Shown here in pieces: positions 1 through 64,000 of a stretch of DNA of 64,000 nucleotides. Numbering within the stretch: position 1 is the first letter of the stretch; each line of letters begins with the position of its first letter. Source of the DNA: a virus; IMG/VR virus record IMGVR_UViG_3300025141_013863, positions 1 through 64,000 of that record; one strand, 5' to 3'. Below the pieces are notes generated by a model. It searched no databases. It worked only from the letters and a program-made list of their open reading frames with translations, and was not told the DNA's origin. The position numbers and the translations under genes are program-made.

Positions 1-2
1 AT

Positions 3-146
3 TACGATTGGTATTACTCTTCTACAGATAATACTATTTACTTTACGGTCATCCCGGGTGGGAATGATTTAGTGGAAGTGGGGTATCGTTATTTTCCTGA
101 CGAAGGAGGAGACACCGGTGATACCGGATTAGATACCGCTGCATAG
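3..146 (+). CDS. 3' end of a gene truncated by the window edge; secreted/surface-type protein C-terminus with DTG low-complexity tail
   Basis: Open frame YDWYYSSTDNTIYFTVIPGGNDLVEVGYRYFPDEGGDTGDTGLDTAA*; stop TAG 144-146 merges into the GGAGG RBS of the next gene. Confidence 0.7.
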   Translation, partial: YDWYYSSTDNTIYFTVIPGGNDLVEVGYRYFPDEGGDTGDTGLDTAA

Positions 147-157
147 GAGGGCGCAGT

Positions 158-451
158 ATGGAAATTTTTGGAATTATTTTATTGATGAATTTGTGTATCT
201 TCGGATATTTTACTTATAGTTTCATTCAGTTTAGAAAAAACGAAAAATATAGAACACAAGAACTCAATCATAAGGTACAATGTTTATTGGATCAGGCACA
301 AAGAGACTACAAGGCTGAAAGAGAAGCTGAGTTGAGCGAAGAGCCTATTAATAATATTTTTAGAGAGCACGTAATTGACGAGATATCCAAACAACGACTC
401 ATCTACGACGAGGCCACTGGGCGATACATCAGACTACGACAGATCAAATAG
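158..451 (+). CDS. hypothetical protein with N-terminal transmembrane helix
   Basis: GGAGG RBS upstream; hydrophobic N-terminus followed by coiled-coil-like segment. Confidence 0.7.
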   Translation: MEIFGIILLMNLCIFGYFTYSFIQFRKNEKYRTQELNHKVQCLLDQAQRDYKAEREAELSEEPINNIFREHVIDEISKQRLIYDEATGRYIRLRQIK

Positions 452-707
452 AAGACCGCCAGAGCCTCCAGATCCCTTAGCGTCATTAGATTTATCATTT
501 ATTGCTAAGGGAATACTTTACATCTGTGCGACGGTGATTATAATTGTGTTTGTGAACTCTTGTCAAGTAGACGAAGAGGTTATTAAACAATGTGAGACAT
601 CATGTAGTTCCAATGGCAATCGTATGGATTCAGTTTCTGTGTTTGGGTGTGACTGCGAACAGAAAGAGAGTGTTATACCATCACCTTTTGTTATACCGGG
701 AGAATAA
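375..707 (+). CDS. hypothetical membrane protein with Cys-rich C-terminal part
   Basis: TM segment GILYICATVIIIVFV, then several Cys; stop abuts next ATG; start uncertain. Confidence 0.6.
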   Translation: MTRYPNNDSSTTRPLGDTSDYDRSNRRPPEPPDPLASLDLSFIAKGILYICATVIIIVFVNSCQVDEEVIKQCETSCSSNGNRMDSVSVFGCDCEQKESVIPSPFVIPGE

Positions 708-1382
708 ATGAGTTTAATAAAGGTTGGCAATGACTTAAAAAAAGAATTTATTTTTATTCATATACCAAAAACCGGAGGGACATCAGTAAAAAATATTATT
801 GGAGAAACGGGCAGTCATCTTACTATAAACGAGATCATAACAAGTGGCGAAGATGAATTGGGTACCAAATTTGATATTAACAAAAATTTACCTTTAGTAT
901 ATTTTGTTAGAAATCCTTTTGATAGATTGGTTTCTGCTTATCATTATGTTGTTGAAATCGAGAAAGTTAAGCTTCCTGAAATTTTTGACACCTTTGATAA
1001 TTTTGTTAATGAATTTTTGCCGTTAATAACTCCATATAATTATTTTTATTTTCTTGAGACTGCAGATGAAATTAATCGATTAGATCCTGATGCTATAGCT
1101 GCCAGACACGCATTGATGTGGCAATGTCAAACACTATTTGTTCGATCATCCGAAGAAGTTTTGCACTATAGATATAAATTTGAAACCATAGAACAAGGAT
1201 TTCAACACTTTGTAGAAACTTTTATAGGACAAAGTACTGATATTGAACTACCTCACTTAAACAAGAGAAAAAAGAAAAGAAAACCATATCAAGAATATTA
1301 TAAAAACAAAGAAACTTATAAGATAGTCTGTGATTTTTATGATGATGATTTTGTAAATTTTAATTACTCAAAAGAGTTATAA
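708..1382 (+). CDS. carbohydrate sulfotransferase (Sulfotransfer_2 family)
   Basis: PAPS-binding motifs FIHIPKTGGTS and VRNPFDRLVSAY. Confidence 0.85.
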   Translation: MSLIKVGNDLKKEFIFIHIPKTGGTSVKNIIGETGSHLTINEIITSGEDELGTKFDINKNLPLVYFVRNPFDRLVSAYHYVVEIEKVKLPEIFDTFDNFVNEFLPLITPYNYFYFLETADEINRLDPDAIAARHALMWQCQTLFVRSSEEVLHYRYKFETIEQGFQHFVETFIGQSTDIELPHLNKRKKKRKPYQEYYKNKETYKIVCDFYDDDFVNFNYSKEL

Positions 1383-1391
1383 GGAGAATAA

Positions 1392-1481
1392 ATGAGTAGA
1401 AAAGCACCAATGCGAAAATTTCGGCGCCGCCGAAAAGTCGGTTCAAAGAAACGTGGAAATAAGAAGAAGAGCAAGAAGTAA
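1392..1481 (+). CDS. 29-aa highly basic peptide (not in ORF track)
   Basis: AAGGAG RBS at 1381; MSRKAPMRKFRRRRKVGSKKRGNKKKSKK*; TAATG overlap with next gene. Confidence 0.7.
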   Translation: MSRKAPMRKFRRRRKVGSKKRGNKKKSKK

Positions 1482-1672
1482 TGGAAAAAACACCAAAAAA
1501 ATGGCAAAAGGTTAGAATTTTCGACAGATATGCAGATGCAAACGAATTGCGCTGTGTAATGTTAGATAATGATGATACAGGACTTTTGGAAGTAAAAGTT
1601 CGTCGGTGTGGCCCTGGAGGCTCACAATTTAAAGTAAAGAGGTACTTCCCGGATTTAAAGAAAGGAAAATAG
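1481..1672 (+). CDS. small hypothetical protein
   Basis: Coupled to upstream stop (TAATG); ends 2 nt before next ATG. Confidence 0.65.
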   Translation: MEKTPKKWQKVRIFDRYADANELRCVMLDNDDTGLLEVKVRRCGPGGSQFKVKRYFPDLKKGK

Positions 1673-1674
1673 AA

Positions 1675-2190
1675 ATGCCAGTTCATAATAAAATGTATGA
1701 TAAAAATGATAAAAGACATAGTGATGAAAAATCAAAGAAACCAACAGTAATGGTATCTGGAGGCTTTGATCCTGTTCACGCTGGTCATATTCGGATGATT
1801 AGGGACGCAGCTAATTTTGGAGAAGTTGTAGTTGTAGCAAATTCAGATGATTGGCTATTTCGTAAGAAAGGCTTTGTATTCATGACTTTTGCTCAGCGCG
1901 CCGAGATCCTTAACGCAATTAAAGGCGTGATTTTAGTAGACTCGGTAGATGATACCGATGGTACTGTATGTGAAGCAATCCGACGCATTAAGCCAGACTT
2001 TTTTGCGAATGGAGGCGATCGAGGAAGAACTAATACTCCCGAAGTTGATGTTTGTAATGAAATGGAAATTAAATTATTATGGGGTGTTGGAGGAGATAAA
2101 AAGATGGCCAGCTCATCAGATTTAGTAAAAAATTCTAGAACTTTCGAGTCGGCCCCCATTAGAGCAAGAGCAAAACATTCTGATAGATAA
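1675..2190 (+). CDS. cytidylyltransferase-like nucleotidyltransferase (CTP_transf_like, TagD/RfaE-II type)
   Basis: SGGFDPVHAGH (HxGH) motif, NSD, ANGGDR, C-terminal SSS. Confidence 0.88.
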   Translation: MPVHNKMYDKNDKRHSDEKSKKPTVMVSGGFDPVHAGHIRMIRDAANFGEVVVVANSDDWLFRKKGFVFMTFAQRAEILNAIKGVILVDSVDDTDGTVCEAIRRIKPDFFANGGDRGRTNTPEVDVCNEMEIKLLWGVGGDKKMASSSDLVKNSRTFESAPIRARAKHSDR

Positions 2191-2193
2191 TCC

Positions 2194-2222
2194 TTGACAT
2201 ATATTTATAAATCAGTTATATT
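2194..2222 (+). promoter_or_regulatory. sigma70-type promoter
   Basis: TTGACA (2194-2199), 17-bp spacer, TATATT (2217-2222), intergenic. Confidence 0.75.
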
Positions 2223-2245
2223 ATAGACCATAAGCCAGGAAAAAT

Positions 2246-2512
2246 ATGAAAATCGAAAAAAATACAATATGCTATACGTCCGAAATCGGACATAATAATT
2301 TTTGGTACCCTTCACATGAAAAAGTCTTAATAAAGGAAAATTGTGAAGCGCAAACGGTACCATGGATTAGCGGTGGTACTAAAATAGCAATAAGAATTTT
2401 GAAGTCTTGCCTTATTCCTATGGATATTACTGAAAATACAACAAATAATATTTCACCTCCAACTAGGAATCAATACACCGTAGTTTGGATCGAGAAATGT
2501 TTAAAAAATTGA
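2246..2512 (+). CDS. hypothetical protein
   Basis: First ORF after promoter, AGGA RBS. Confidence 0.6.
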   Translation: MKIEKNTICYTSEIGHNNFWYPSHEKVLIKENCEAQTVPWISGGTKIAIRILKSCLIPMDITENTTNNISPPTRNQYTVVWIEKCLKN

Positions 2513-2544
2513 AAGATTTGTGTACGTTTAAAAAGGAGAAAAAA

Positions 2545-2748
2545 ATGTCACCCACATCAACTGAAACAAGAACAACAAAACAACTAAAAGAAAAGGTAAG
2601 TCAGCAATCACAGGAACTCTCTAAGCTTCGCTCAAGAGTCAGCCAACTGGTAGATGAAATCAATTCTTTAAAGTATGAAATTGAAACTTTCCGCGATAGG
2701 ATCACAAGCGACATGAAGGTTGTTTTCGAATCCCTGCAGAAGCAATAA
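2545..2748 (+). CDS. coiled-coil hypothetical protein
   Basis: AAGGAG RBS favours ATG 2545 over 2485; heptad pattern. Confidence 0.65.
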   Translation: MSPTSTETRTTKQLKEKVSQQSQELSKLRSRVSQLVDEINSLKYEIETFRDRITSDMKVVFESLQKQ

Positions 2749-2753
2749 ATAAA

Positions 2754-3227
2754 ATGTCATTTATAGAAAAATTACAAAGCTTGCATCTTGAGTCCGATGC
2801 TATAGCTACACTTACGTATAGCGAAGGCGCCGATGTATTTCTTATGAATGAAGACGAAGTAGAAACTGCTCTTTCTGAAACAAATGTAGTTCAACAATTT
2901 AGCGAACTTATTACAACTCCCGGTATTAATGCTACTACGCCGTTTGGTACCAATATTATAGGAGAACTTCGCCATAACGACTATCTTTTAGATTATGAAC
3001 GAGGCAGCTTTTCATTTTCGGACTATATTAGCGAAACAATTCGTGATAATTTTTACGAATTGGACTTTATTGATAAGTCTGTTAAAAAATATGATTATAA
3101 GCGAGGATTTTGTACGCTCACAGCCGAAATACAAATTCCCGTCGCAGAACTAATTAACGAACGGCCGCATATTGATGCTTGGACAATTTCTGTTCCTACA
3201 AAATTTGGCACAGTTACTGTTCAGTAA
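2754..3227 (+). CDS. hypothetical protein
   Basis: 157-aa ORF in the coupled + strand series. Confidence 0.7.
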   Translation: MSFIEKLQSLHLESDAIATLTYSEGADVFLMNEDEVETALSETNVVQQFSELITTPGINATTPFGTNIIGELRHNDYLLDYERGSFSFSDYISETIRDNFYELDFIDKSVKKYDYKRGFCTLTAEIQIPVAELINERPHIDAWTISVPTKFGTVTVQ

Positions 3228-3235
3228 AATCGCTG

Positions 3236-3322
3236 TATCGTCGGTTTAATAACGATAGGTGGCTGCCGATCCTTACGTAGGCAGGGGTTTCCGGTCATCC
3301 TAGTTCGCGACAAAAAACCGGG
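3236..3322 (+). ncRNA. candidate structured RNA / tRNA-operon leader
   Basis: GC-richer intergenic stretch with three hairpins: TATCGT/ACGATA, CTGCC/GGCAG, CCGGT/ACCGG. Confidence 0.3.
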
Positions 3323-3325
3323 TTT

Positions 3326-3401
3326 GCCACTTTAGCTCAGTTGGCAGAGCAGCTGATTTGTAATCAGCAGGTCGTAGGTTCGACTCCTATAAGTGGCTCC
3401 A
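3326..3401 (+). tRNA. tRNA-Thr(UGU)
   Basis: Acceptor GCCACTT/AAGTGGC, D-arm GCTC/GAGC, anticodon stem GCTGA/TCAGC with loop TTTGTAA, TTCGA T-loop, encoded CCA. Confidence 0.96.
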
Positions 3402-3402
3402 T

Positions 3403-3477
3403 GCGAGTGTAGCTCAGTGGTAGAGCCCCACGTTGCCAACGTGGCTGTCGCTGGTTCGAACCCAGTCACTCGCTCCA
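3403..3477 (+). tRNA. tRNA-Gly(GCC)
   Basis: Acceptor GCGAGTG/CACTCGC, anticodon stem CCACG/CGTGG with loop TTGCCAA, TTCGAA T-loop, encoded CCA. Confidence 0.96.
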
Positions 3478-3483
3478 TTTAAA

Positions 3484-3747
3484 ATGAAATATAAAGAGGG
3501 CGATATAGTATTAGTAAAATCGGAAGCTGGACCGGCTATTCCGCCATTTCATGTTAAGTTAATACAAAAAATAAAACGCGAGACTTCTTTTGATCCGGCC
3601 TATATAATATGGAAGGCCCGCTTGACAAAACGTAAAGAAGCAGATATGCTTAGAAGAGAATGGCAAATACCATTTAAGTTTCCCGATCTGATGGAAACAT
3701 TTGTATATGAAACAAATATAATCAAACTAATTAAATCAAATGGCTAA
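3484..3747 (+). CDS. hypothetical protein (SH3/KOW-like start YKEGDIVLVK)
   Basis: ATG 3484 just after tRNA-Gly; the longer track ORF overlaps the tRNA. Confidence 0.65.
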   Translation: MKYKEGDIVLVKSEAGPAIPPFHVKLIQKIKRETSFDPAYIIWKARLTKRKEADMLRREWQIPFKFPDLMETFVYETNIIKLIKSNG

Positions 3748-5074
3748 AAAGAATTATCTTTTAGATACAAGCGTTTATTTAACGGATGCCAACTCTATCT
3801 TTGAATTTGGCAATAACGATATTTTCATTCCTCTTAAAGTGCTTGAAGAAATAGATAAACATAAAAAACGCCAGGATTCTGCTGGTGCAAATGCTAGAAG
3901 AATAATCAGAACTCTCGATGAACTAAGAATAGCGGGCGATTTGCAAAAGGGCGTCAGGCTTGGTAAAGGAAAAGGCCTCGTCAAGGTAATGTCTTATACT
4001 TGTTTATCTGGATCTATTTTTCCTCCCGATTTGGACATTAGAATTCCTGATCATGCGATTCTTGCAACTGGTAAAGCGGTCCAACAAGAACAGCCAAATC
4101 GAAAGATGATAGTTGTATCGCGTGATATTAATATGCGTGTCATCTGTGATTCCATTGGTATGATAGCAGAAGATTATATTACCGAAAGAGCCGCAGAATC
4201 ATCCGACCAACTTTACAGCGGCTTTATTGAGCACTTGGTGGATGATCAGATAATCGATCGATTTTATGAGGGAGAAGATATACTCATTGAAGAGGACGAA
4301 GTGCAAACACTATGGTATCCAAATCAATTTATTATGATGGTGTCCAATGCTAATGACAAGAAAACAGCCCTAGCACGCTTTAAAAGCCATCATATACCAT
4401 TGAAAAAAATTATACATGACAAGCTCCCTGACTGGAAAATCAATTCAAGAAACAAGGAGCAGGCGTTTGCTATGGACTTGCTGATGAATCCTGATGTTAA
4501 GATTGTTTCTCTGATTGGAAGAGCGGGCAGCGGCAAAACTTTAATGGCAATTGCTGCAGGCCTACAACAAACAATTGGAATGAGACAAGAACACAATCAT
4601 TATTCACGACTTATTGTCTCGCGACCCGTGCAGCCACTTGGAAAAGATATTGGCTTTCTACCGGGAACCATGCAAGAAAAAATGCTTCCCTGGTTAATGC
4701 CTATTCAAGATAATCTTAAATTTCTTATGGGGGATCGTACATCTTTAGAAATGTATATGGAGAAAGGAAAGATTGAAATTGAAGCCCTTACTTATATTCG
4801 AGGCCGCTCAATTGCAAATGCGTTTGTTGTGATTGATGAAGCTCAAAATTTAACAAAACATGAGATTAAAACTATTATTACGCGTATCGGAGATGGTACA
4901 AAAATTATATTAACAGGAGATATTGAACAGATTGATAATATTTATGTTAATGAAACATCAAATGGTCTAGCACATGCAATTGAAAGCTTTAAGCAGCATC
5001 CAATAGCCGGCCATGTAACTTTTAAGAAAGGCGAAAGAAGCGAGTTAGCCACACTTGCTTCAAAAGTCTTATAA
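3740..5074 (+). CDS. phoH: PIN-domain PhoH family ATPase (PhoH2/YlaK type)
   Basis: PIN motifs LLDTSVY, LEEID, D..IL, SRDINMR; Walker A GRAGSGKT; GFLPG, RGRS, IDEAQN, GDIEQID. Confidence 0.93.
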   Translation: MAKKNYLLDTSVYLTDANSIFEFGNNDIFIPLKVLEEIDKHKKRQDSAGANARRIIRTLDELRIAGDLQKGVRLGKGKGLVKVMSYTCLSGSIFPPDLDIRIPDHAILATGKAVQQEQPNRKMIVVSRDINMRVICDSIGMIAEDYITERAAESSDQLYSGFIEHLVDDQIIDRFYEGEDILIEEDEVQTLWYPNQFIMMVSNANDKKTALARFKSHHIPLKKIIHDKLPDWKINSRNKEQAFAMDLLMNPDVKIVSLIGRAGSGKTLMAIAAGLQQTIGMRQEHNHYSRLIVSRPVQPLGKDIGFLPGTMQEKMLPWLMPIQDNLKFLMGDRTSLEMYMEKGKIEIEALTYIRGRSIANAFVVIDEAQNLTKHEIKTIITRIGDGTKIILTGDIEQIDNIYVNETSNGLAHAIESFKQHPIAGHVTFKKGERSELATLASKVL

Positions 5075-5104
5075 TTTATGATATAGTTTAAAGGAGAAAT
5101 TTAT

Positions 5105-5398
5105 ATGTCAGAACAAAAAATAACCACAGAACGAGAGATACACACAAATCCAATGTTGGCAATGCCGGTGCAGCCTGATTCAGAACTTAAGAATTATCTT
5201 GTAGAATATGTTGGAACAAAATTAGACAATGAAGAAGTTACTGTTAATATGATAGCAGAAGTTCTTGCTACTGATTTTCCAGAGTTTGTATATGCATTTG
5301 CGGAAGAAAACTTTCTTCGGGGATATCAATTAGGATTAAATGACGCTACGAGATTACATACACCAGAAACAGAAGATGCTTCTGGAACAACAGACTAA
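5105..5398 (+). CDS. hypothetical protein
   Basis: AAGGAG RBS; acidic 97-aa ORF. Confidence 0.7.
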   Translation: MSEQKITTEREIHTNPMLAMPVQPDSELKNYLVEYVGTKLDNEEVTVNMIAEVLATDFPEFVYAFAEENFLRGYQLGLNDATRLHTPETEDASGTTD

Positions 5399-6041
5399 TT
5401 TTTATACATCAACAGGGATTCATGTATTTTTTAAGGATCCGCTGAAAAATCCAGATCTTGATATTGAAGAGCTGGTCTCTAAATTAGAATCTACAATGCC
5501 TTCACATCTTTTATCTGAAGTTGAGATGATTATAATTGGCTGGTTTGATGAATTTGATGAGCGCGGCATAAATGCTTTTTATGATGGCGGTACCTTGTTT
5601 GTTTCAAATATTCAAGATGACTTTATGGATATGTATGATGATCTAATTCATGAAATTTCACACTCTCTAGAAGAGTCGCATGGATATTTTATTTATGGTG
5701 ATAAAAAAATTGAACAAGAATTTCTAAGAAAGAGAAAGCATCTTCATGATTTGTTGTGGAAAAAAGGTGTCAAGGCGCCTTTATCGTCTTTTTTGGATTC
5801 AGAGTATGATAAAGAATTTGATATGTTTTTATATCAAAAAATAGGATATGATAAATTGTCTGGAATTATGATGGGCTTATTCTTAACTCCTTACGCCGCA
5901 ACATCATTAAAAGAATACTTTGCTACAGGCTTCACGGAATTTTATCTACATCCAGAAACCCATGACTTTTTTCAAAAAGTAAGCCCTGAGTTATATAAAA
6001 AAATATTTTTATTACAAGATCCAGAAGAACTTGACAACTAA
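5340..6041 (+). CDS. putative zinc metallopeptidase (zincin, HEXXH)
   Basis: NAFY strand, LIHEISHSLE, downstream EYFA third-ligand-type motif. Confidence 0.55.
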   Translation: MTLRDYIHQKQKMLLEQQTNFYTSTGIHVFFKDPLKNPDLDIEELVSKLESTMPSHLLSEVEMIIIGWFDEFDERGINAFYDGGTLFVSNIQDDFMDMYDDLIHEISHSLEESHGYFIYGDKKIEQEFLRKRKHLHDLLWKKGVKAPLSSFLDSEYDKEFDMFLYQKIGYDKLSGIMMGLFLTPYAATSLKEYFATGFTEFYLHPETHDFFQKVSPELYKKIFLLQDPEELDN

Positions 6042-6059
6042 TAAAAAAGTGGTTATAAT
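6031..6059 (+). promoter_or_regulatory. perfect-consensus sigma70 promoter
   Basis: TTGACA (6031-6036), 17-bp spacer, TATAAT (6054-6059); GGAGG RBS before TTG 6082. Confidence 0.88.
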
Positions 6060-6081
6060 ATAATATAAATCTGGAGGGATT

Positions 6082-6846
6082 TTGCCACATATATCATATT
6101 CAGAACTCAAAGATTGGAATACTTGCGCGTTTTATCATAAACTTACGCGCATTGACAAGCTAAAAGGGTTCAAAGGAAATGCTTTTACAGCATTTGGAAC
6201 AGCTATTCATGCTGTTTGCGAGAAGAAACTATTAAAGGAAGAGATTGACGATGAAGGATTTTTTGTTAGTAGCTTCTCTGATTGTATTGCTTCACTGGAC
6301 GACGATGTGGATGTGGATGATCGACTCGTTGCTGATATGGTGGGACAAGGGAAAGCTATACTTCCAGAAATTGAAGAAGCGGTCAAAGAATACTTCGGAG
6401 AATATAACGTCGAAGCAGTAGAATTGCAGCTTTATGAGCCTATCGATGGTGAAGATGATTATAAGTTCAAAGGTTTTATTGACGCGATTGTATCGACACC
6501 AGATGGAAAAGTTCATATTTTTGATTGGAAGACTTGCGGCTGGGGATGGGACTCTCGTCGCCGAAGCGAAAAGATGACAACGTACCAACTTACGCTTTAT
6601 AAACACTTTTTTGCGCAAAAGATGAATGTAGATCCTAAAAATATTGAAACCCACTTTGCTCTTCTTAAAAGAACAGCAAAGAAAAACAGAGTAGAACTAT
6701 TTAGAGTGACGAGCGGCCCAAGAAAAACTGAAAACGCTCTTAAATTATTGCACAAAGCATTGTACAATATTAAAAATAAACGTTACATTAAAAATAGACT
6801 CTCGTGTGAGCGATGTACGTTTAGACACACAAAAGAATGTCCATGA
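6082..6846 (+). CDS. PD-(D/E)XK exonuclease, Cas4/AddB-like with predicted 4Fe-4S staple
   Basis: SYS..C, GTAIH, GFIDAI, IFDWKT, QLTLY, C-terminal CxxC-x7-C. Confidence 0.88.
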   Translation: MPHISYSELKDWNTCAFYHKLTRIDKLKGFKGNAFTAFGTAIHAVCEKKLLKEEIDDEGFFVSSFSDCIASLDDDVDVDDRLVADMVGQGKAILPEIEEAVKEYFGEYNVEAVELQLYEPIDGEDDYKFKGFIDAIVSTPDGKVHIFDWKTCGWGWDSRRRSEKMTTYQLTLYKHFFAQKMNVDPKNIETHFALLKRTAKKNRVELFRVTSGPRKTENALKLLHKALYNIKNKRYIKNRLSCERCTFRHTKECP

Positions 6847-6853
6847 GGAATAA

Positions 6854-34518: not shown

Positions 34519-34529
34519 GGAATTAAAAA

Positions 34530-41159: not shown

Positions 41160-41181
41160 ATAATTATATTGAGGTAAAAAT

Positions 41182-41550: not shown

Positions 41551-41565
41551 AATGAGGATTCTTTA

Positions 41566-43362
41566 ATGGCCGACAATAGAAAAAAAATGGTACCCATAGA
41601 TTATACTAATAGGGAATTTAATGGGATTAGAGACGATTTAATGGAAATCGTAGAAAGGTTTTATCCCGATAAGTTTCGGGATTGGAGCGAGGGCTCTTTT
41701 GGTTCTTTGATGTTAGATGCGGTTGCATATGTCGGAGATCAGCTTTCGTTTTACTTGGATTACAACGTAAACGAGACCTTTTTAGATACAGCATATCAAT
41801 ATGGCAATATATTAAGACAAGGAAGAGTCCTTGGCTATAAAAGCACAGGAAGGCCCTCTACATATGGAATAGTTGCTATGTTTGTTTTGGTGCCCGCCTC
41901 CCCGACCGCTATAGGTCCAGATACAAGATATATACCGATACTTAAAAGAGGTACTTCTTTTCTATCTCGCGCCGGCCTATCGTATATATTAACGCAAAAT
42001 ATTGATTTTTCTAACGTTACTTATCCTAGAGTGGTAGCAAGAGTAAACGATGATACAGGATCTCCAACACATTATGCCATTAAAGCATATGGGAACGTGG
42101 TCTCGGGCCAATTACAACAAGAAGAAATAGATGTTGGACCTTATGAGAGATTTAAGAGGGTTGCGATTGCTGATCCAAATGTTTCCGAAGTTATTAAAGT
42201 GGTAGATACAGAGGGTAATGAATATTTTGAAGTAGATTATCTATCTCAAGATATGATATATAAGGAAATATCAAATAAAAACTTTTTAAATGATAATGTG
42301 CCCTCTATATTAAAGCCCACTTTGGTATCTAGAAAATTTGTTGTTGAGAGAGGCAGAGAATCTACCATTATACAATTTGGTAGCGGCAAAGAGGGCGAAT
42401 CAAGCGTTGTTGCTTCACCGCAAGAAGTTGCGATAGATTTATTTGGAAAAAATTATACCACTGATGTTACATTTGACCCTACTAGATTGTCTAAAAATGA
42501 GAATTTTGGAATTGTTCCCTCTAATACGACGTTAACGGTGGTGTATAGAAGCACGAATCCTGTAAACTCTAATGCTGGCGCCGGATCTATCAATAAAGTT
42601 ACAAACGCTATAATGTCGTTTTCGGATAGACAAATATTATCAAATGATGAGGTAGTAGCGGTGAGAAACTCAATAGAGGTGTTTAATGAATCTCCAATAA
42701 CTGGTGATGTCACGGCTATAAGTCCCTATGAATTAAAGCAAAGAATTTACGATACATTTCCTACGCAGAATCGAGCAGTAACTCAATCAGACTATGAAAA
42801 CATTGCCTTAAGAATGCCAGCAAAATTTGGCTCGGTATCGCGGGTTAGCGTCCAGAAGGATCCTAGCGCCAAGAAAAGAAATCTAAATATGTACATCGTA
42901 TCGGAAGATTTAGCTGGCAAACTAACACTTACGAACCAGACTATAAAAAATAATTTAAAAGTTTGGTTAAACAATTATAGAATGATAAATGATACTATAG
43001 ATATTTTAGATCCTTATATTATTAATATTGGAATATTCTTTGATATTAAAGCTTCAGCCGGTGCAGAAAAGTTTGACACACTCCAAGAGTGTATAGATGC
43101 TATAACAAAACAATATAGTTCAAAGTTTTTTATTGGAGAATCTTTGTATGTAAGCGATATTTATAAAGCATTGAATGAAGTTCCGGGAGTCCTGGACGTA
43201 ATCAGTGTTAAACTATTAAATAAAATAGGCTCTAATTATTCTGGGAATGTTCTTGATATTAAAAGAAACATGTCGCCAGATGGGGGTCATTTAGTGGCGC
43301 CAAAAAACGCTATATTAGAAATTAAGTTTCCTGAAGTTGACATAAAAGGAAAGGTTAGATAA
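41566..43362 (+). CDS. baseplate wedge protein gp6 / baseplate J-like
   Basis: IDYTNREF, LDAVAYVGDQLSFYLD, ETFLDTA, IQFGSG, QNRAVTQSDY, VPGV. Confidence 0.88.
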   Translation: MADNRKKMVPIDYTNREFNGIRDDLMEIVERFYPDKFRDWSEGSFGSLMLDAVAYVGDQLSFYLDYNVNETFLDTAYQYGNILRQGRVLGYKSTGRPSTYGIVAMFVLVPASPTAIGPDTRYIPILKRGTSFLSRAGLSYILTQNIDFSNVTYPRVVARVNDDTGSPTHYAIKAYGNVVSGQLQQEEIDVGPYERFKRVAIADPNVSEVIKVVDTEGNEYFEVDYLSQDMIYKEISNKNFLNDNVPSILKPTLVSRKFVVERGRESTIIQFGSGKEGESSVVASPQEVAIDLFGKNYTTDVTFDPTRLSKNENFGIVPSNTTLTVVYRSTNPVNSNAGAGSINKVTNAIMSFSDRQILSNDEVVAVRNSIEVFNESPITGDVTAISPYELKQRIYDTFPTQNRAVTQSDYENIALRMPAKFGSVSRVSVQKDPSAKKRNLNMYIVSEDLAGKLTLTNQTIKNNLKVWLNNYRMINDTIDILDPYIINIGIFFDIKASAGAEKFDTLQECIDAITKQYSSKFFIGESLYVSDIYKALNEVPGVLDVISVKLLNKIGSNYSGNVLDIKRNMSPDGGHLVAPKNAILEIKFPEVDIKGKVR

Positions 43363-45035
43363 TGGCCCTAAAGAGATACACAGCGAGCGCTGACACTACG
43401 ATTGCGAACGCATACGAGCCTGGACTTATTACTAGAGCCACCGGCGCAAATATGGGAGCATCTGATGTGTTAGATGTTTTTTCTGTCTATGCAAGACAAT
43501 CAACTAGTTCCGCTGAGCTGTCTCGCGTGTTGGTTAAATTTCCCATAACTGATATATCAACAGACCGAACAAATTCTATAATACCAGCAAGTGGTAGTGT
43601 TAGCTTTTACTTGCACCTTTATAATGCTTCTCATTCGCGAACAGTTCCGAAAGAGGCCAAATATACTTTTATGATGGTTTCTCAATCATGGCAGGAGGGC
43701 GCCGGCTTAGATATGGAAGGCTATACCGACTTGACACTTGGCAATGAGGGGGCCGATTGGATGTCTGCATCTAATAGTGCCTATTGGACAGATGCCTGCA
43801 GTACGTTGTTGGCCGGCGGTTCTTATCATACACAATCTGGCGCGCCAAACGATCAGGTAGATACTGAAATTCACATCTTTGACCAAACTTTGTCCGATGG
43901 AACCGAAGATATAGAAGTTGATATTACGCCATGGGTCGAGCAATGGATCGCGGGCACTTACTCAAATTATGGTGTTGGGGTAATGTTAACAGCTAGCCAG
44001 GAGGCCTCCAGTTCTGTTGATGCTCTAGCCGGCCTCCCAACAGGCAGAGCGGATGACGATGGGCTTATTCAAAACCCAAGCGGTTCTACTACATCATATT
44101 ATATTAAAAGATTTTTTGGTAGAAAAAGTCAATATTTTTTCAAGCGCCCTCACATAGAAGCTCGTTGGGATGATAGTTTAAGAGATGATCGGGGAGACTT
44201 TCATTATAGTAGCTCTTTGGCAGATGGTCCTGATAACTTAAATACCATTTATTTATATAATTATGTTCGTGGTATATTGAAAGATATTCCCGGAATTGAG
44301 AAAACGGGCTCTATCATGGTTAGTTTATTTTCTGGCAACCTTGATGACACTAGACCAACGGGATCAAGTGGACAGCTGCACATTAATAGCTCTTCAAACC
44401 CCGGCAACGAGGGTAAGGTTGGGGGCGTTAAACTTCATGTTACCGGCGGCTGGGTTTCGACTGGAATATATTCAGCCTCGTTAGCCATAACTGCTTCTAA
44501 AACAACAAGCGGATTTGATCCAATATTGACCTTATATGATGTTTGGTCCACAGGCAGTATCGTAGACGCTGATCATCTGCAAACACAATTTCATACTGGA
44601 ACAATTAAGCCGATAATATTAGAATCAGATAATAGAATGCAGAAGCATAGAAATTATTTAAGCATTACTAACCTGCGCAACAGCTATAGAGCCGACGAAA
44701 CAGCTCGGTTCAATTTATTTGTGAGAGAGAAGAATTGGAGCCCCAATATTTACACAAAAGCCAGCTCTAATATTGAGACAAAGACAGTTCACAGTGCATC
44801 CTATAGAGTTTATAGAACTTTAGATGCTAATGATTCGGTTACATATGGTACCGGAAGCGATAAACATACATATTTGTCATATGATGTATCTGGAAATTAT
44901 TTTGATTTCGATATGAGCTTGCTGGAACCTGGATACGAATATTCGTTTAAATTTTCTTTTTATGATAATTCGTTATCAACGTGGGTTGAACAAGAACAGG
45001 CTTTTAAGTTTCGAGTAGAAGATTATGAGTATTAA
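43362..45035 (+). CDS. virion protein with DNRLRE/CBM96-like beta-sandwich
   Basis: DTTI..N.G, SRVLVKF, LHLY, VSQSWQEG, DITPWVEQW..NYG pattern. Confidence 0.55.
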   Translation: MALKRYTASADTTIANAYEPGLITRATGANMGASDVLDVFSVYARQSTSSAELSRVLVKFPITDISTDRTNSIIPASGSVSFYLHLYNASHSRTVPKEAKYTFMMVSQSWQEGAGLDMEGYTDLTLGNEGADWMSASNSAYWTDACSTLLAGGSYHTQSGAPNDQVDTEIHIFDQTLSDGTEDIEVDITPWVEQWIAGTYSNYGVGVMLTASQEASSSVDALAGLPTGRADDDGLIQNPSGSTTSYYIKRFFGRKSQYFFKRPHIEARWDDSLRDDRGDFHYSSSLADGPDNLNTIYLYNYVRGILKDIPGIEKTGSIMVSLFSGNLDDTRPTGSSGQLHINSSSNPGNEGKVGGVKLHVTGGWVSTGIYSASLAITASKTTSGFDPILTLYDVWSTGSIVDADHLQTQFHTGTIKPIILESDNRMQKHRNYLSITNLRNSYRADETARFNLFVREKNWSPNIYTKASSNIETKTVHSASYRVYRTLDANDSVTYGTGSDKHTYLSYDVSGNYFDFDMSLLEPGYEYSFKFSFYDNSLSTWVEQEQAFKFRVEDYEY

Positions 45036-48000
45036 AAAGCTTTTTGATTCGCAAAGATCAAAAAATTATTTATCTGAGACCGACGAAAGAGAGGCTTTCG
45101 CCGATATAGAGTCGTCCAGAAACATGAAGGCGATCTCAAAGAGGCAGAAGACTTTTGTTCCTCAAATAGATTATACAAAGCCTGAAAGATTTGCACGCTA
45201 CGGATCGGCATATCTTTATTATAAATCTGCTATTGAATGGATTCATGATTATTATCCATATGATGGTTCCGATGCAGAAATAAATGAATATAGAAATAAA
45301 CTATTAGATATCGAAAGGTATATATTTGATAATATCTATCCTCGTACAAACGGGTTTGTTACTTTTGCTAATCCTCATGATGGCGGCTGGGGCGGCACCA
45401 CTAATGATCCAGATGATTCTGATGGTTATGGAATTCCATCCACGCTAGAGTACATTACATTTAAAGGAGGGCCCGGCACTGGTTCCGCCGAAGATGGTGC
45501 ATTGTCTTCTCTTGTGCCCAATCCTTATAATGAAAAGATAAAACACGCCAACATATATGATGAAGATATCTACACAAATGCTGGCTTACCAGCAACTTAT
45601 GGATCGGGCTCTAGAGAGTCTAATCTTAAAGCTAATTTTAATACAGGCGTCACAGTTGAGTTTTGGTTAAAAACAGGCTCCGCTATTCCTCTAAGTACAC
45701 TGAATAACGAAACAGAAAAGCAAGTTATCTTTGATATGTGGAACAACAATGCCGACACTACGCATGATTATGGACGCATAACGATTGAGTTAAATGGGAC
45801 AGCTAGCAGCGGATCTCCATTTATAGTCACAGTCCAGTCTGGTAATGCTAACCCTGGAATTTTTCAACAATCAATCGGCGCCGACATAGATGTCGACACC
45901 CTTTCAAAATGGCATCATTATGCTTTTGTAATGGAGAATACTGGCAGCGGCCATGCTATTAAATTCTATGTAGACGGCGATTATAATGATGTACTGGCCC
46001 ATACTGGTTCTTTTGGAGAGTTGCCTCAAAAAGACATGATGGGGCGCCTTGGAGCACTCTTAACGACTCCTTCTGAAACAACCGCCACTGGCTCCCTTGC
46101 CGGCGCCGGAAAACTTTCTGGCTCTATGGATGAATTTCGATATTGGAAAGTCGCTAGAACTGCCAGAGAAATTGGTTTAAACTGGCTCGATCAAATTAGA
46201 GGCGGAGTAAACACAGATATTTCTAATACGACCCTTGGTGTCTATTATAAATTTAATGAGGGTATAACAACTGTAGCGGCCACCGATAGCGTTGTTCTGG
46301 ACTATGGAGGCCGCGTTTGCAATGGTGTTTGGACAGGCTACGGAAGTAATTCCCGCGCCACTGGCTCTGCGATGGTCTTGGCCAGCGGCTCGGCAATTTC
46401 ATCAGAATACAAAGATCCAATTATGTATTCAAACCACCCAGATGTGTCTGCATTAAAAACAGCTTTATTAAATAGTGGCTCCTATCACGATAGACAAAAC
46501 AACTCTTCTATGTTGAGCATGGCGCCTTCTTGGATTATCGAAGAAGACGAAGATCATGGTAGTGAATTTACTACAAATCTTCGATACGTATCTCATATTG
46601 TAGGAACATATTTCGATAAATTATACTTACAAATTCAGTCTCTTCCAAAATTTAAGCAAGCCGGATATACAAGCGCTTCATATACGCCATTTCCCTTTGC
46701 ACAGCATATGCCACAATCAATGGGGCTCGTCTCCCCGGAGCTGTTTATTGATGCATCTGTTATGGAGAAATTTCTCAATAGAAACCAGACCGGATCCTTT
46801 GAGGGCGACTTAGCAGAAACTAAGAATCTAATTTATCTCAATCTTTATAATAATATAACAAATATTTTTAAGAGCAAAGGTACTGAAAAATCAATTAGAA
46901 ATGTATTTAGGTGCTTTAATCTTGATGAGAGCTTGATCCGATTAAACGCATATGCCGATAATACAACATATTTGTTAAGAAACAATACCCTGCAGACTCT
47001 TATAAATAAAAATAGTATTAACTTTAATCAGAAGCAAAATACAAACGCCGTTATTTATCAGAAGCAATATACTGGCTCCGCGTATGAACCGGCCCCAAAT
47101 GATGTAATTGCTGATGATACCATAGGACATATTTCTGGTTCGTGGGGTATCGGCTATAATGCCACCAATGCTCCGGATGATAGGGGTATTGAAGATCCTT
47201 ATGGATTTACAATGGAAGCTGATATTACGTTTCCAACATTCTATAGAACCCAAGATAGATTTGATAGAAATTTTTTAACAGGCTCTTTGTTTGGGCTATA
47301 TACTGTTCCGTCCGGTGCTTCTGGTTATCCTCTTACTAGGATTAAAAACGGTACCGACACTACGTGGATAACAAGCCTTGGAAACAATGCAGCAGGAGAT
47401 TCCGAAAAAGGCCCAGACGCAGCAAACTTTCAAGTTTTTGCAATTAGAGATAGCGAATATTCAAAAAATATTCGGTTTATGATTTCTTCCTCTAATGAGC
47501 CGACCCCGATTCCGCTATTAACAAGTAGCACCTTTTATGATGTCTACTCAGATAGTCGTTGGAACCTTTCCGTTAGAATTGTTCCGTCCCTAACAAGCTC
47601 TTATGGTGCTGCCGGCATTGTTAGCGGCTCCCGAGAATCAGAAAGCAATTATGATCTGATCTTTAATGGCTATCATAATGAAGTTGGTACAATTCAGAAT
47701 AGTTTTAAGTTAACTGCATCGATAGACTATGATACTGCGGTAAACTTTTTAAATGCGGCCAAAAGGGTTTATGCCGGCGCCCGCCGAACAAATATAACTG
47801 GTGCTATTTTAAATCAAACAGATGTTAATATAAACTCTATAAAATATTGGACAAAATATATTGAAGATGGAGTATTAGAACAACACGCGAATGATCTTAC
47901 TAACGCCGGCATATCTGCATCGTACCAAAACACCTCCCCAAGAGATTTAAATAGTTTTGGCCACGATATTTTAAATTTAAATACTTTGGCTCTCCATTGG

Positions 48001-58942: not shown

Positions 58943-58966
58943 TATTTATTAAATATGGAGTAAAAC

Positions 58967-59395: not shown

Positions 59396-59403
59396 GAATT
59401 CGT

Positions 59404-60030: not shown

Positions 60031-60044
60031 AGGAGATTTAAAAA

Positions 60045-60479: not shown

Positions 60480-63151
60480 TGGCATCAGTTTCTGTTGAAT
60501 ATGTTGATACCAATTTGATATCAGGTTCTGAACCGTTGCGAACGCAACTGGAGCAATCTTGGGAATATGTAAGTTCTTCTGAGGGCGTTACTTTAAGTTT
60601 TAATGGAAATGTTGATTATGACGGCGGAATAACCTATTACTTAAAAGAGGTTCTTACTGATTACGAACAAGTAGCCGAAATGTCAGAAGACGCCATAATA
60701 CCAAATTACAAAATACCGGTTCGAATTCGCGGCAATGAAGATCTCATATTAAATGATAATATGTGGAAGTCTTATTTGCTGGGATACTCCTATGGAACAG
60801 CGTCTTTCGCTGCGGCTTATAATACCAACGTAAATGATGATTATTATATTTCATTTAATATGCCTTATGATAATTATGCGGCCAGAGTGTTATCTGAGCT
60901 TGACGGAGATAGCTATGAATCTATAAGAGTTCAGCCAGTTTATAATTATTATATAAAAGAATATCAAGAAGCTATCGCATCCGATGCTGACTATTTAATT
61001 CCAAATATATATCTTTATCAAATAGCAGCAGATGCAGAGTCCACTGGCCAAAATTTCGATGAAGATATGATGGCTTACCTTACATTAGATGGCGAATTGG
61101 GTAATATTATGGGATATTCAACCGACTCCAATGTGCTTAGTTCCCTACTTTCGCCAACTGCACACCAGATGCTGCCCCCAGCGGAATCGTTATATGAAGG
61201 TTCTGATCTTGATGGCGACTCCACCGATGATATTATGCTTGATAGAAATTATGATCTTCGACGTTTTTTAAGCTCATCTTATCCAAACCGTACACTCTCT
61301 GCATCCTCAGCCGCTAGCGCTTTCGTTGCATCGCAACATCTTATTTTTGATCATGAGTCAGCCGGCACGCTATTGAACTCAACCTCTAAAGTTCATACTG
61401 ACGCCGGCCTCTGGCCATATTATACTGAAATAGAAATGCCTTTGGGTCGTTCTGGGGGAACAACATTTAGAGATATACTTAAGACCCGAAAATATGTTGA
61501 AAGATTTATGTTAGATCTTCAATATTTTACAGATGATCGCGTTTCGAAAGAAGGGCACAATATAGTAGCAAACTATTCGTACAATTCAGGCTCAGAGGCC
61601 TCCGATATAGTTTCATCTTTAAAAAACTCTGCAGTTGAAACACACCAATCAATAGATTTTTTGGATTTTTTATATTCATCATATAATAATATTGGCAACC
61701 GCAGCTTCGGACAGGGGGCCTTTTACGCAAAACCTCTTACTTATGATTCGAAAGCCTCGCAGGCCATAGATGCTCCTTACATATACTATAACATTGGAAA
61801 GAATTTAAAAGTAGTTGATGATGTGATATCCTATTTAGAGAGCAATCCACCATCAATTGAAAGCATTGAGGATTTATATGATCTGGCCTCATCGTCTAAA
61901 TATTATGAAGTCTTAGCATATCGAATTGAAAAAGCTGCACCCAATGGTGAGAATATACAAAACTTTTGGATTTTTAATGCCACCGGCCTGGAAGATACAA
62001 TAACACTTTATGATTCACAGCTGAGATACGGCGCCGATTATGTATATAATATTTATATGTATAAATTAATACACGGCATTAGATATAGTCTTTCTGATTT
62101 GGTATACACAAAACAAATAGCCCAGCCAGCCACATTATCAGACGATACGACAGCCTATTGTTTGCAGTTTTTAAGTGCTGAAACTGGAGAGTTAGCTCAG
62201 CCGCTTTATGGTGTTACAGCTGAAGAAGAGACGGAAGAAGAGGAAGAAGAGGAAACTTCAACGGATTTAGCAGATTATCTGGGTGATTCGATTTTTAGAG
62301 ATGCATCAGATCCCTATTTGGCTGATTTTATGTTAAATTATGAACCGTCATTAAAACTAGTTGAAATTGCGCTGGGCTCAAAAACAATTAGAATTTTAGA
62401 TCATCCAGCCCCCTCCTTAGACGTATCTTCATATCAGATGCTAGATGATTCTGGAGTAATTGGGTTTTCGATAAACGTAGAAGCATTCGCAAAAACGAAA
62501 CTGCCAACTCCATTAACGACAGGCGATATGCAATATAACAGTAATTACAGATACCATAATGATTTATTAGAAGACGAAAAAGTTACAATGCCCGCTCGAT
62601 CGCCAACACGTACAATCGAAGTATTTAGACTAGCGACGAGACCAACCGCGATCGCAGACTTTGGCGAATCGCCATTTAAAACATACGATCTCACAATACA
62701 AAATGAAAAGGGCACAAGAGCGGTAGTACAGTGTCATGATAAAATCTCCACAAATACAAAATATTATTATATGTTTAGAGTATTAAATGAATTTGGTATA
62801 GCTGGCCCATTGACTGAAATTTATGAAGTTGAGCTGGTTAGCGATGGCGGTTATAATTATATGATAACAGAAATTCTTTTTGAAGAGGATCTGGACACAG
62901 CCACATATACTAACCCAACAAAATCATTTGGTAAAATTTTTCAAATTATGCCCCACGCGAGTCAGCTGACTTTAGTGGACTCAGATGTTGACTATGCCGA
63001 GCCGTCTTACACACAGATTGATAATTTAGAAGTAGGAAATGCAGATTTAGAAGATAAAATATGGGGCAAAACATTTAAACTTCGCCTTACATCAAAGAAA
63101 ACTGGTAAAAAAATTGATTTAAATATTACTTATAATGTAAGCAGCGGATAA
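60479..63151 (+). CDS. acidic putative virion protein with C-terminal Ig/FN3-like segments
   Basis: 890 aa; AYRIEK, YVYNIY, KYYYMFRVLN patterns. Confidence 0.6.
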   Translation: MASVSVEYVDTNLISGSEPLRTQLEQSWEYVSSSEGVTLSFNGNVDYDGGITYYLKEVLTDYEQVAEMSEDAIIPNYKIPVRIRGNEDLILNDNMWKSYLLGYSYGTASFAAAYNTNVNDDYYISFNMPYDNYAARVLSELDGDSYESIRVQPVYNYYIKEYQEAIASDADYLIPNIYLYQIAADAESTGQNFDEDMMAYLTLDGELGNIMGYSTDSNVLSSLLSPTAHQMLPPAESLYEGSDLDGDSTDDIMLDRNYDLRRFLSSSYPNRTLSASSAASAFVASQHLIFDHESAGTLLNSTSKVHTDAGLWPYYTEIEMPLGRSGGTTFRDILKTRKYVERFMLDLQYFTDDRVSKEGHNIVANYSYNSGSEASDIVSSLKNSAVETHQSIDFLDFLYSSYNNIGNRSFGQGAFYAKPLTYDSKASQAIDAPYIYYNIGKNLKVVDDVISYLESNPPSIESIEDLYDLASSSKYYEVLAYRIEKAAPNGENIQNFWIFNATGLEDTITLYDSQLRYGADYVYNIYMYKLIHGIRYSLSDLVYTKQIAQPATLSDDTTAYCLQFLSAETGELAQPLYGVTAEEETEEEEEEETSTDLADYLGDSIFRDASDPYLADFMLNYEPSLKLVEIALGSKTIRILDHPAPSLDVSSYQMLDDSGVIGFSINVEAFAKTKLPTPLTTGDMQYNSNYRYHNDLLEDEKVTMPARSPTRTIEVFRLATRPTAIADFGESPFKTYDLTIQNEKGTRAVVQCHDKISTNTKYYYMFRVLNEFGIAGPLTEIYEVELVSDGGYNYMITEILFEEDLDTATYTNPTKSFGKIFQIMPHASQLTLVDSDVDYAEPSYTQIDNLEVGNADLEDKIWGKTFKLRLTSKKTGKKIDLNITYNVSSG

Positions 63152-63164
63152 ACCAAAATTACTA

Positions 63165-63174
63165 ACTATTTATA
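63165..63174 (+). promoter_or_regulatory. candidate phage late promoter ACTATTTATA
   Basis: Intergenic, immediately before GGAG RBS; related TATTTAT at 58943 and 2202. Confidence 0.35.
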
Positions 63175-63191
63175 GGAGAGAGAATAATTAA

Positions 63192-64000
63192 ATGGCATTT
63201 TTAGATAACTCTGGCGACATTATTTTAGACGCCGTATTAACAGATGTTGGAAGAAAGAGATTAGCGCAAGGAAACTTTAAGATTACTAAGTTTGCTTTAG
63301 GCGACGATGAGATCGATTATACTTTGTTTAATAGAGATCATTCTAGTGGTTCCGCATATTTTGACTTGCAAATTATGCAAACACCGATCTTTGAGGCTTT
63401 CACCCAGACGAATGCAAATATTAATTATGGGCTTACGTCACACACAAGAACAGATTTGCTTTATCTGCCAATTTTAAAAGCAAATGAGCTGGTCAGCACA
63501 GCTGCAAAAGTAACTTCAAGCGTTTACTATGTTGCAGCTAATTCAGAAACAGCAACCAAATTAAAGACTGCGTTCAGCAGCTCTAATTATGTTCTAGAAT
63601 CGAGTCAAGTTTCTGATACTGCGATTTATGTTGAATCCGGCCTTGATACTACAAACTTAACTAGCGATTCATCAAACCGATCTAGCTATATTGTTAATAC
63701 AAACTTGCTTGATTCTGCTTATACAATATACGCTGATAGTCGATTTGTTGCAGGGCTGTTGACTGCGCCGAGAGCGGGTTATTTCCGAAATGGAACAGAC
63801 GGAACATCAAAAATTAGTATGACGCCGCTGGGGACCACTACGGCTACCTCAGCGACAGCAGTTTTAGACAACTATAATACATATAGTGCCATTGGGGTTT
63901 CCAACGAGGTGACATATAATTCGCTCGTTGATGCTACTACGATCTCTGCGATATCGGGCCCTAGAGGATCCGCAACTGCTTTAAATATTGTAGTTGATAG
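63192..64000 (+). CDS. virion structural protein, 3'-truncated by window edge (tail-collar-fibre-like N-terminus)
   Basis: MAFLDNSGDIILDAVLTDVGRKRLAQGNFKITKFALGDDEIDY...; frame stays open as far as read toward the window end; absent from ORF track. Confidence 0.8.
   Translation, partial: MAFLDNSGDIILDAVLTDVGRKRLAQGNFKITKFALGDDEIDYTLFNRDHSSGSAYFDLQIMQTPIFEAFTQTNANINYGLTSHTRTDLLYLPILKANELVSTAAKVTSSVYYVAANSETATKLKTAFSSSNYVLESSQVSDTAIYVESGLDTTNLTSDSSNRSSYIVNTNLLDSAYTIYADSRFVAGLLTAPRAGYFRNGTDGTSKISMTPLGTTTATSATAVLDNYNTYSAIGVSNEVTYNSLVDATTISAISGPRGSATALNIVVD

Follow-up and report, generated by a model that had tools for sequence, protein, structure and literature searches.

Short GC-rich palindromes, led by GGCGCC and GCCGGC, are in genome-wide excess in an uncultured marine T4-like myovirus and most of its relatives

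We analysed the first 64 kb (the window) of a linear, 90,332-bp IMG/VR virus contig (IMGVR_UViG_3300025141_013863; ∼49% complete by CheckV; hereafter G000), in which two palindromic hexamers, GGCGCC and GCCGGC, are unusually abundant. The contig has a GC content of 38–39% and carries nearly every gene on the + strand. Genes in the window encode PhoH, a long glycan-synthesis operon, an M23 tail lysin, baseplate wedge proteins and giant tail proteins, with a T4-type primase, an SbcC/gp46-like protein, the large terminase and the portal farther along the contig. Also beyond the window, at 69337–72453 (L118:5337–8453), is the gene of a 1038-aa protein in which an N-terminal metallophosphoesterase match is joined to an SbcC/gp46-like ATPase; it may be a fused Mre11–Rad50-type nuclease. 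Megablast of 12 kb against GenBank phages gave zero matches. The closest cultured relatives, Microcystis phage Mel-JY01 and Flavobacterium phage immuto, are ∼30% identical at the baseplate wedge, and a 42-kb stretch of immuto holds neither hexamer. The psbA gene (PF00124) was not found in G000, so this is not a typical cyanomyovirus. More than 90 relatives are present in IMG/VR, with complete genomes of 190–195 kb, and the G000 sequence was recovered from many marine metagenomes, with a 4-kb stretch covered by at least half in no fewer than 19 public sequencing runs. G000 is a fragment of an uncultured marine T4-like myovirus. It was compared with five relatives (G001–G005), those retrieved including three complete genomes (G001, G002 at 195 kb, and G003) and 127 kb of G004. 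G001 and G002 are enriched in palindromes, and G003 and G004 form a sister clade that avoids them.

A first-pass annotation of the window had estimated roughly 50 copies of GGCGCC and 40 of GCCGGC where about two of each were expected. Exact counting gave 55 and 45, against 2.9 expected for each from base composition (18.9× and 15.4×). Its ordering of the other all-GC palindromes was likewise borne out, with GGGCCC (13) and CGGCCG (12) intermediate and GCGCGC (4), CCGCGG (3), CGCGCG (2) and CCCGGG (1) near expectation. Over the whole contig GGCGCC occurs 84 times and GCCGGC 76 times (930 and 841 per Mb), and the two words combined stand at 15.7× over composition. Their positions in the window are as follows.

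1423–62035: GGCGCC, 55 copies, starting at 1423, 2826, 5774, 8415, 10309, 13730, 14366, 16362, 17339, 17585, 18877, 20910, 22520, 23243, 24347, 26329, 27645, 30105, 31983, 33099, 33125, 33138, 33346, 33778, 35233, 36525, 36572, 36819, 37791, 38019, 38757, 39426, 39867, 40978, 41255, 41402, 42577, 43296, 43698, 45877, 46043, 46102, 46521, 47776, 50284, 51469, 56015, 57586, 57617, 58208, 58529, 59099, 59251, 60072 and 62030

5006–61408: GCCGGC, 45 copies, starting at 5006, 8557, 9444, 10608, 14284, 16048, 21252, 22475, 22688, 22877, 24473, 25486, 27237, 27717, 27962, 32502, 32733, 32763, 33128, 33135, 33681, 34219, 34344, 34372, 38016, 41424, 41971, 43701, 43812, 44028, 46099, 47611, 47773, 47905, 50359, 51348, 51673, 52162, 52359, 52912, 54837, 57086, 59096, 61361 and 61403

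33099–33143, + strand: the densest patch, of overlapping GGCGCC, GCCGGC and CGGCCG, in the Gly/Ala-rich 3′ end of the M23-peptidase tail-lysin gene (31938–33164)

The densest patch includes a 10-mer palindrome, CCGGCGCCGG, at 33123. Every GGCGCC and GCCGGC copy has its own flanks, which excludes a mobile element or a duplicated gene segment as their source. A longer conserved motif around the hexamers was rejected, as no flanking base is conserved beyond codon periodicity, and so was a regular ∼1-kb spacing, since the spacing is Poisson-like with a coefficient of variation of 0.87–1.13.

To set the counts against coding constraints, synonymous codons were shuffled within genes in 300 replicates, keeping the protein and the per-gene codon usage. 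For the contig, the shuffle predicted 27.8 ± 4.1 GGCGCC (maximum 42) where 84 were observed (z = 13.6), and 29.2 ± 4.7 GCCGGC (maximum 41) where 76 were observed (z = 10), placing the two words first and second among all 4096 hexamers. Most copies are read in frame 0 (∼70–78%), with GGCGCC as GGC-GCC (Gly-Ala) in 58 of 84 cases and GCCGGC as GCC-GGC (Ala-Gly) in 59–60 of 76. Frames 1 and 2 are also enriched, by 2–9×, for GGCGCC (10 vs 1.3 and 10 vs 3.0) and for GCCGGC (3 vs 0.3 and 9 vs 3.9), and the same holds in two complete relatives. The first-pass annotation had cited five copies as examples of all three frames. Four are in the frames that it gave: the copy at 2826 is read in frame 0, that at 10309 begins on the second codon position and those at 5774 and 8415 on the third. 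The fifth, at 1423, lies in no confidently called gene. An apparent intergenic enrichment was excluded from the evidence, because the sites concerned mostly resemble coding sequence missed by a crude gene caller.

The order of the codons matters. Gly-Ala is written GGC-GCC in 39% of cases and Ala-Gly is written GCC-GGC in 34%, where codon usage predicts 10%. As codon pairs, GGC-GCC and GCC-GGC are found at 2.4–3.6× expectation, whereas the direct orders GGC-GGC and GCC-GCC reach 1.2–1.7×. Likewise, GGC and GCC trinucleotides that are inverted and abutting stand at 3.0× and 2.6×, compared with 1.0–1.5× at other spacings (3–12). Local autocorrelation of GC content at third codon positions was considered as a cause and rejected, the background for C at the third positions of neighbouring codons being 1.05–1.10×. 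CpG is not depleted (odds ratio 0.94). The excess is a DNA-level signal and not an effect of protein sequence or codon usage, as the first-pass annotation had proposed, and this holds even though most copies sit in frame 0.

Markov models gave a more qualified picture. A 3rd-order model expects 20–22 copies in the window and under-predicts the palindromes by 2.1–2.7×, while fitting the non-palindromic twin GCCGCC/GGCGGC exactly (37 vs 36.9). With a 4th-order model, most of the excess is absorbed (55 vs 41.0 and 45 vs 33.4 in the window; 84 vs 64 and 76 vs 58 in the contig), leaving 1.3×. The pentamers GGCGC and GCGCC, on which this model is conditioned, mostly sit within the hexamers themselves (84 of the 124 GGCGC pentamers, or 68%, are inside GGCGCC), and the model absorbs the excess for that reason. 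The first-pass annotation had named both controls as tests of the enrichment, which thus persists under the codon shuffle and largely disappears under a model that contains most of the word.

The 4th-order result is one of several that could be taken to mean that the two words are a by-product of composition, the outcome of favoured GGC and GCC codons, of proteins rich in Gly and Ala and of local variation in GC, without any pressure on the hexamers themselves. GGC makes up 38% of Gly codons and GCC 27% of Ala codons in G000, site density tracks local GC (r = 0.66), frame 0 predominates, and in Flavobacteriaceae genomes GGCGCC is commonly 2–20× more frequent than CCGCGG. The window also encodes a matching tRNA.

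3326–3477: adjacent pair of tRNA genes, tRNA-Thr(TGT) and tRNA-Gly(GCC)

3403–3477, + strand: tRNA-Gly, anticodon GCC, which reads GGC and matches the unusually high GGC use

Against this, shuffles that preserve codon usage leave a 3× excess (z = 10–14), direct-order codons show so much smaller a rise, and the off-frame positions are enriched. Moreover, tRNA-Gly(GCC) is present in G000 and G001 and not in G002, G003 or G004, yet G002 has the strongest GCCGGC excess, so the tRNA is not required for the signature. Composition was therefore rejected as a sufficient cause, and it is very improbable that it accounts for the excess. What it does explain is the lead of these two words among the GC-rich palindromes, because GGC and GCC are mutual reverse complements and are the preferred Gly and Ala codons.

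The excess extends well beyond two words and one contig. In G001 and G002, GCCGGC and GGCGCC are among the top three hexamers (z = 10–17), and among related loci of at least 10 kb, 38 of 46 carry the words at no less than 5× over composition, including a clade with 43–47% baseplate identity. Across G000–G002, all-GC palindromes exceed the shuffle by 2.0–2.4× as 6-mers, 3.6–3.9× as 8-mers and 5.5–6.7× as 10-mers. AT-only palindromes are at ∼1.0, and only C-containing palindromes are enriched. In G001, six of the eight all-GC hexamer palindromes are enriched, together with most palindromes that have G/C at both ends, and G001 and G002 show an excess, in several frames, of GCGCGC, GCTAGC, GGTACC, GGATCC, GCATGC, CGATCG, GTCGAC and others. 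No single word dominates: GGCGCC and GCCGGC are followed by GGGCCC and CGGCCG in G000 and are accompanied by GCGCGC, GCTAGC and GGTACC in the relatives. At least 15 different palindromes are in excess overall, and the enriched sets vary by lineage. The trait is an old one, common to the family as a whole, which is a large group of uncultured T4-like marine myoviruses with genomes of ∼190 kb.

The flanks of palindromic hexamers are themselves complementary 1.26–1.47× over chance, alike for A:T, T:A, C:G and G:C, while the controls are flat (1.08 and 0.94 for non-palindromic cores; 0.85–0.90 for identical flanks). The extension ratio is 1.32 from 4 to 6 bp, 1.52 from 6 to 8, 1.27 from 8 to 10 and 1.18 from 10 to 12. 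Inverted 4-nt GC arms are found at 3.7× when they abut and at 2.2× with spacers of 1–2 nt. With spacers of 3 nt or more, inverted repeats are no commoner than the direct-repeat background, and repeats of the hairpin type are thus not involved. Rather than discrete elements, GGCGCC and GCCGGC are the words most often produced by a preference, genome-wide and at the DNA level, for uninterrupted, GC-rich sequences of about 6–10 bp with dyad symmetry.

Individual sites come and go quickly. Between relatives at 73–92% nucleotide identity, 21–22% of sites are intact, compared with 29% for the average hexamer and 10% for the non-palindromic twins, a pattern that fits sites turning over rapidly about a high equilibrium. 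The differences between orthologous sites are single synonymous changes. Ten of 15 substitutions at sites are transitions, equal to the genome-wide share of 66%. Pairs diverged by 1–7% show 25 differences in site state, set against 26.8 losses and 5.5 gains (both directions summed) under a random-mutation null that is itself distorted, since non-palindromic all-GC words change 1.6× more than it predicts; the events are unpolarised. Sites are equally at home in different gene classes, with Gly-Ala written as GGCGCC at a frequency of 0.36–0.53 and Ala-Gly as GCCGGC at 0.24–0.47 across the glycan operon, tail, replication and head blocks; the sole outlier (0.14) is the block at 1–6850, which is small (9 opportunities). 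The preference is realised through point substitutions, mostly at synonymous positions, and the excess is an equilibrium of fast gain and decay, with random scatter and equal frequency across gene classes.

Contigs from four other marine runs over 32000–48000 yielded 36 variant positions, two of which destroy GCCGGC (32733 and 32768) in a locally divergent segment. This ∼90-bp part of the tail-lysin gene (32733–32825) has a cluster of 12 differences and looks like a recombination tract. One variant is 6 nt shorter at 37722, within the gene of a 2209-aa protein. In G002, stretches of 13–17 kb lack both GGCGCC and GCCGGC in an otherwise densely marked genome, and these may be recent acquisitions or compositionally distinct regions.

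The same genomes also bear the marks of palindrome avoidance. Restriction-site avoidance in phages was reportedly treated by Rocha in 2001. In G000, GAGCTC (0 vs 9.7 in the shuffle), CTCGAG (0 vs 8.1), GACGTC (0 vs 7.6) and CGTACG (0) are absent where 4–10 of each are expected, and GAGCTC is missing from all five genomes, G000–G004. Words containing CCWGG are depleted in G000 (ACCTGG, 1 vs 11.3; ACCAGG, 1 vs 12.6). The non-palindromic CAGCTC/GAGCTG is strongly avoided in all four relatives, and CTCCTC/GAGGAG is absent from G001, where 83 are expected. The four missing palindromes and the avoided CAGCTC and CTCCTC are probably the footprints of host restriction, including systems that are Type IIS-like. 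Other depletions in the contig are of Shine–Dalgarno-like words within genes (AGGAGG, 14 vs 33.8; GAGGAA, 30 vs 53.2; GGAGGA, 17 vs 34.2) and of TTTTTT (57 vs 90.6), all relative to the synonymous shuffle.

The avoider clade has been purged of nearly all palindromes, GGCGCC and GCCGGC included. Palindromic codon pairs in G003 and G004 are at 0.5× expectation and dozens of palindromes are at zero, and G004 has no GGCGCC and four GCCGGC in 127 kb while keeping the same core genes. At orthologous Gly-Ala sites within this clade (∼80% nucleotide identity), two members have GGCGCC and others have GGTGCC, GGCGCT or GGCGCA, and such differing one-off synonymous variants indicate independent purging. 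Restriction avoidance thus opposes the palindrome preference. Avoidance of restriction sites is described in phages (Rusinov 2018, PMC6286503) and operates in these same genomes, on GAGCTC, CTCGAG and GACGTC, but for GC-rich palindromes, GGCGCC and GCCGGC among them, the sign is opposite. The reach differs too: the footprint of avoidance in G003 and G004 is limited to the step from 4 to 6 bp, whereas the enrichment extends to 8–10 bp.

The fate of the sites in the avoider clade bears on whether the palindromes serve as binding sites. A homodimeric protein of phage or host that binds, condenses or packages DNA could use them, with selection holding about one per kilobase; the first-pass annotation had raised a DNA-binding or packaging factor. 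The strict, spacerless dyad symmetry is what homodimer recognition predicts, the trait is family-wide, and the density resembles that of other genome-wide signals. Yet many palindromes are enriched and their flanks are base-agnostic, neither positions at orthologous sites nor a regular spacing are conserved, and whole sister lineages have lost the sites, with G004 retaining its core genes without a single GGCGCC. Genes present in the enriched genomes and missing from the avoiders gave no DNA-related domain: 10 of the 18 genes found in G001 and G002 and missing from G003 and G004 were scanned against Pfam, with matches only to AhpC/thioredoxin-like and Hsp20 domains and a weak one to a peptidase. 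The GGCGCC and GCCGGC sites are dispensable, with no sign of being functional elements, and a binding-site role is improbable.

The nearest parallel is with the highly iterated palindromes (HIPs) of cyanobacteria, a likeness already drawn in the first-pass annotation. HIP1 (GCGATCGC) is comparable in being a short palindrome at high density in coding DNA, with positions unconserved between relatives and a debated cause, but it is one dominant 8-mer, with GATC and CGATCG methylases, and there are only 2–7 copies of GCGATCGC per genome here. Closer still are the exceptional HIPs described by Elhai (2015; PMC4390886), which are GGCGCC in Calothrix PCC 7103 and rCCGGy/GCCGGC in Oscillatoria PCC 10802, at ∼1000–2000 per Mb. 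These are the same words, all-GC palindromes in AT-rich genomes, at about one per kilobase, with unique flanks, dispersed through genes and spread by substitution and not transposition, and in Calothrix GACGTC is depleted beside the GGCGCC excess. G000 shares the order-of-magnitude excess over composition, the dispersal, the unrelated contexts reached by substitution and a density just under the quoted range. It differs in being a virus, in showing both words together with many other GC-rich palindromes of 6–10 bp in place of one dominant word, in an excess that is 15–19× over composition but ∼3× over a codon-aware null, and in having no cognate methyltransferase in the phage genome.

Under an Elhai-type HIP mechanism, host cytosine methyltransferases for GGCGCC (or GrCGyC) and GCCGGC (or rCCGGy), among others, would be coupled to methyl-directed or very-short-patch repair and would ratchet near-cognate words into palindromes as the phage multiplies in these hosts. 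Several observations fit: the identity, density and dispersal of the two words, the absence of GACGTC beside the GGCGCC excess, the restriction of the enrichment to C-containing palindromes and the differing palindrome sets among lineages. That sister lineages purge exactly these words also implies that enzymes recognising them exist in the host community. The first-pass annotation had likewise suggested a cytosine methyltransferase with methyl-directed repair, and here the parallel weakens. C5 and N4/N6 methyltransferases (PF00145, PF01555) and Vsr (PF03852) were not found in the 90-kb contig or in G001–G005, the three complete relatives included, and PF01702 (TGT/DpdA), PF02945 (endonuclease VII), PF00488 (MutS) and PF01939 (NucS) were not found in G000–G004. 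Judged by these searches, the agent is not a cytosine methyltransferase, Vsr, MutS, NucS, endonuclease VII or TGT of recognisable type encoded by the phage. Nor are the words one transition away from the palindromes depleted: GGTGCC/GGCACC (29 vs 29.5 in the shuffle), GCTGGC/GCCAGC (51 vs 40.8) and GTCGGC/GCCGAC (33 vs 17.3), the C→T and G→A neighbours, are all at or above expectation. Finally, at least 15 palindromes with base-agnostic flanks reaching 8–10 bp would need an implausibly large set of enzymes.

The imprint of Dcm and Vsr on CCWGG in E. coli is similar in principle, since a methylase target becomes over-represented through biased correction of T:G to C:G. That excess is roughly 1.3×, and the effect here is larger. 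Of the signs that very-short-patch repair would leave, neither a Vsr with a C5 partner nor depletion of the precursor words was seen, and the CCWGG words themselves are depleted.

A comparison with host hexamers, also proposed in the first-pass annotation, was made against candidate hosts. GGCGCC occurs at 49–193 per Mb in co-binning metagenome-assembled genomes (MAGs) and at 3–275 per Mb in 151 Flavobacteriaceae genomes, far below the 930 per Mb of the phage, although this is a weak point against host enzymes because the true host may be another. Relatives identified by their large terminase (TerL) sit in MAG bins assigned to Legionellales, Flavobacteriaceae (two), Isosphaeraceae, WOR-3 and Acidiferrobacteraceae, which are taxonomically inconsistent. 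The contigs of the phage family in published Legionellales, Flavobacteriaceae, Isosphaeraceae and Acidiferrobacteraceae bins (L120, L121, L123 and L125) are probable bin contamination, and one Flavobacteriaceae bin (contigs C3–C5 of G007) seems to hold several phage contigs, judged by their dense GGCGCC. A further TerL homologue (66% identity) lies inside the 2.85-Mb "chromosome" of a WOR-3 MAG (CP070664.1, 2,135,974–2,157,557); this stretch has no palindrome excess (one GGCGCC and one GCCGGC in 21.6 kb) and could be an integrated relative or a misassembly. The methylase-plus-repair reading is not supported, and a host-encoded, methylase-linked process is on the unlikely side.

Base-agnostic flanks, the many palindromes involved and the reach to 8–10 bp point to a mechanism that senses self-complementarity, and, together with the dispensability of the sites, they argue against a pair of enzymes specific to the two hexamers and against a single binding protein. 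The best reading overall, which we hold tentatively, is a substitution bias that favours dyad symmetry. A weak directional bias in substitution or mismatch correction would reward self-complementarity itself, independently of any recognition of two particular hexamers. Most probably it would operate while the phage replicates and recombines its DNA, either by copying through very short template switches ("U-turns") or by correcting one half of a near-palindrome against the other, and its products would afterwards be sieved by coding constraints and restriction. Quasi-palindrome or template-switch mutagenesis, known from T4 rII, from E. coli hotspots and from short events in eukaryotes, perfects imperfect inverted repeats. 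The excess described here resembles it in depending on self-complementarity, independently of base identity, with GC-rich pairing favoured. It differs in that known cases have longer arms and usually a loop, whereas the arms here are contiguous and 3–5 nt long.

Several points weigh against a substitution bias of this kind. Template-switch mutagenesis is reportedly a property of longer-armed quasi-palindromes, as in Ripley's T4 rII work and the E. coli hotspots, and arms of 3–4 nt, as here, offer very little pairing energy. Looped inverted repeats (spacers of at least 3 nt) have no excess, leaving the classical hairpin form unsupported, and the extension ratio, far from rising with length, falls beyond 8–10 bp (1.52, 1.27, 1.18). 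Double changes that compensate one another and so preserve a palindrome, such as exchanges of GGCGCC with GGTACC or GGATCC, number 120 against 102.5 expected from control contexts, a marginal difference that is not significant. Because gains and losses are unpolarised, a bias in creation is not separated from selection, and a weak selective advantage of palindromes, or a host-side set of enzymes, would yield the same equilibrium statistics.

Palindrome avoidance is taken as a rule in phage genomics. For GC-rich palindromes the opposite is seen in a globally distributed and abundant family of marine myoviruses, whose sister lineages are among the strongest avoiders. In the literature searched, no account of over-represented palindromes in phages, or of HIP1 in cyanophages, came to light. 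It is conceivable, and we put it forward with caution, that an undescribed mutational or repair process, intrinsic to the replication–recombination machinery of this phage family or to its hosts, writes short GC-rich palindromes against restriction avoidance, so that the palindrome content of each lineage records the balance between the two. If host methylation-linked repair were instead responsible, the spectrum of enriched words would be readable as a record of host enzymes. If a mutational or repair bias is the cause, it would be a new determinant of oligonucleotide signatures and would affect k-mer-based host prediction and binning, and binning has already put relatives wrongly into MAGs of five unrelated taxa. 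These phages would then also offer a new system in which to study the origin of HIP-type palindromes.

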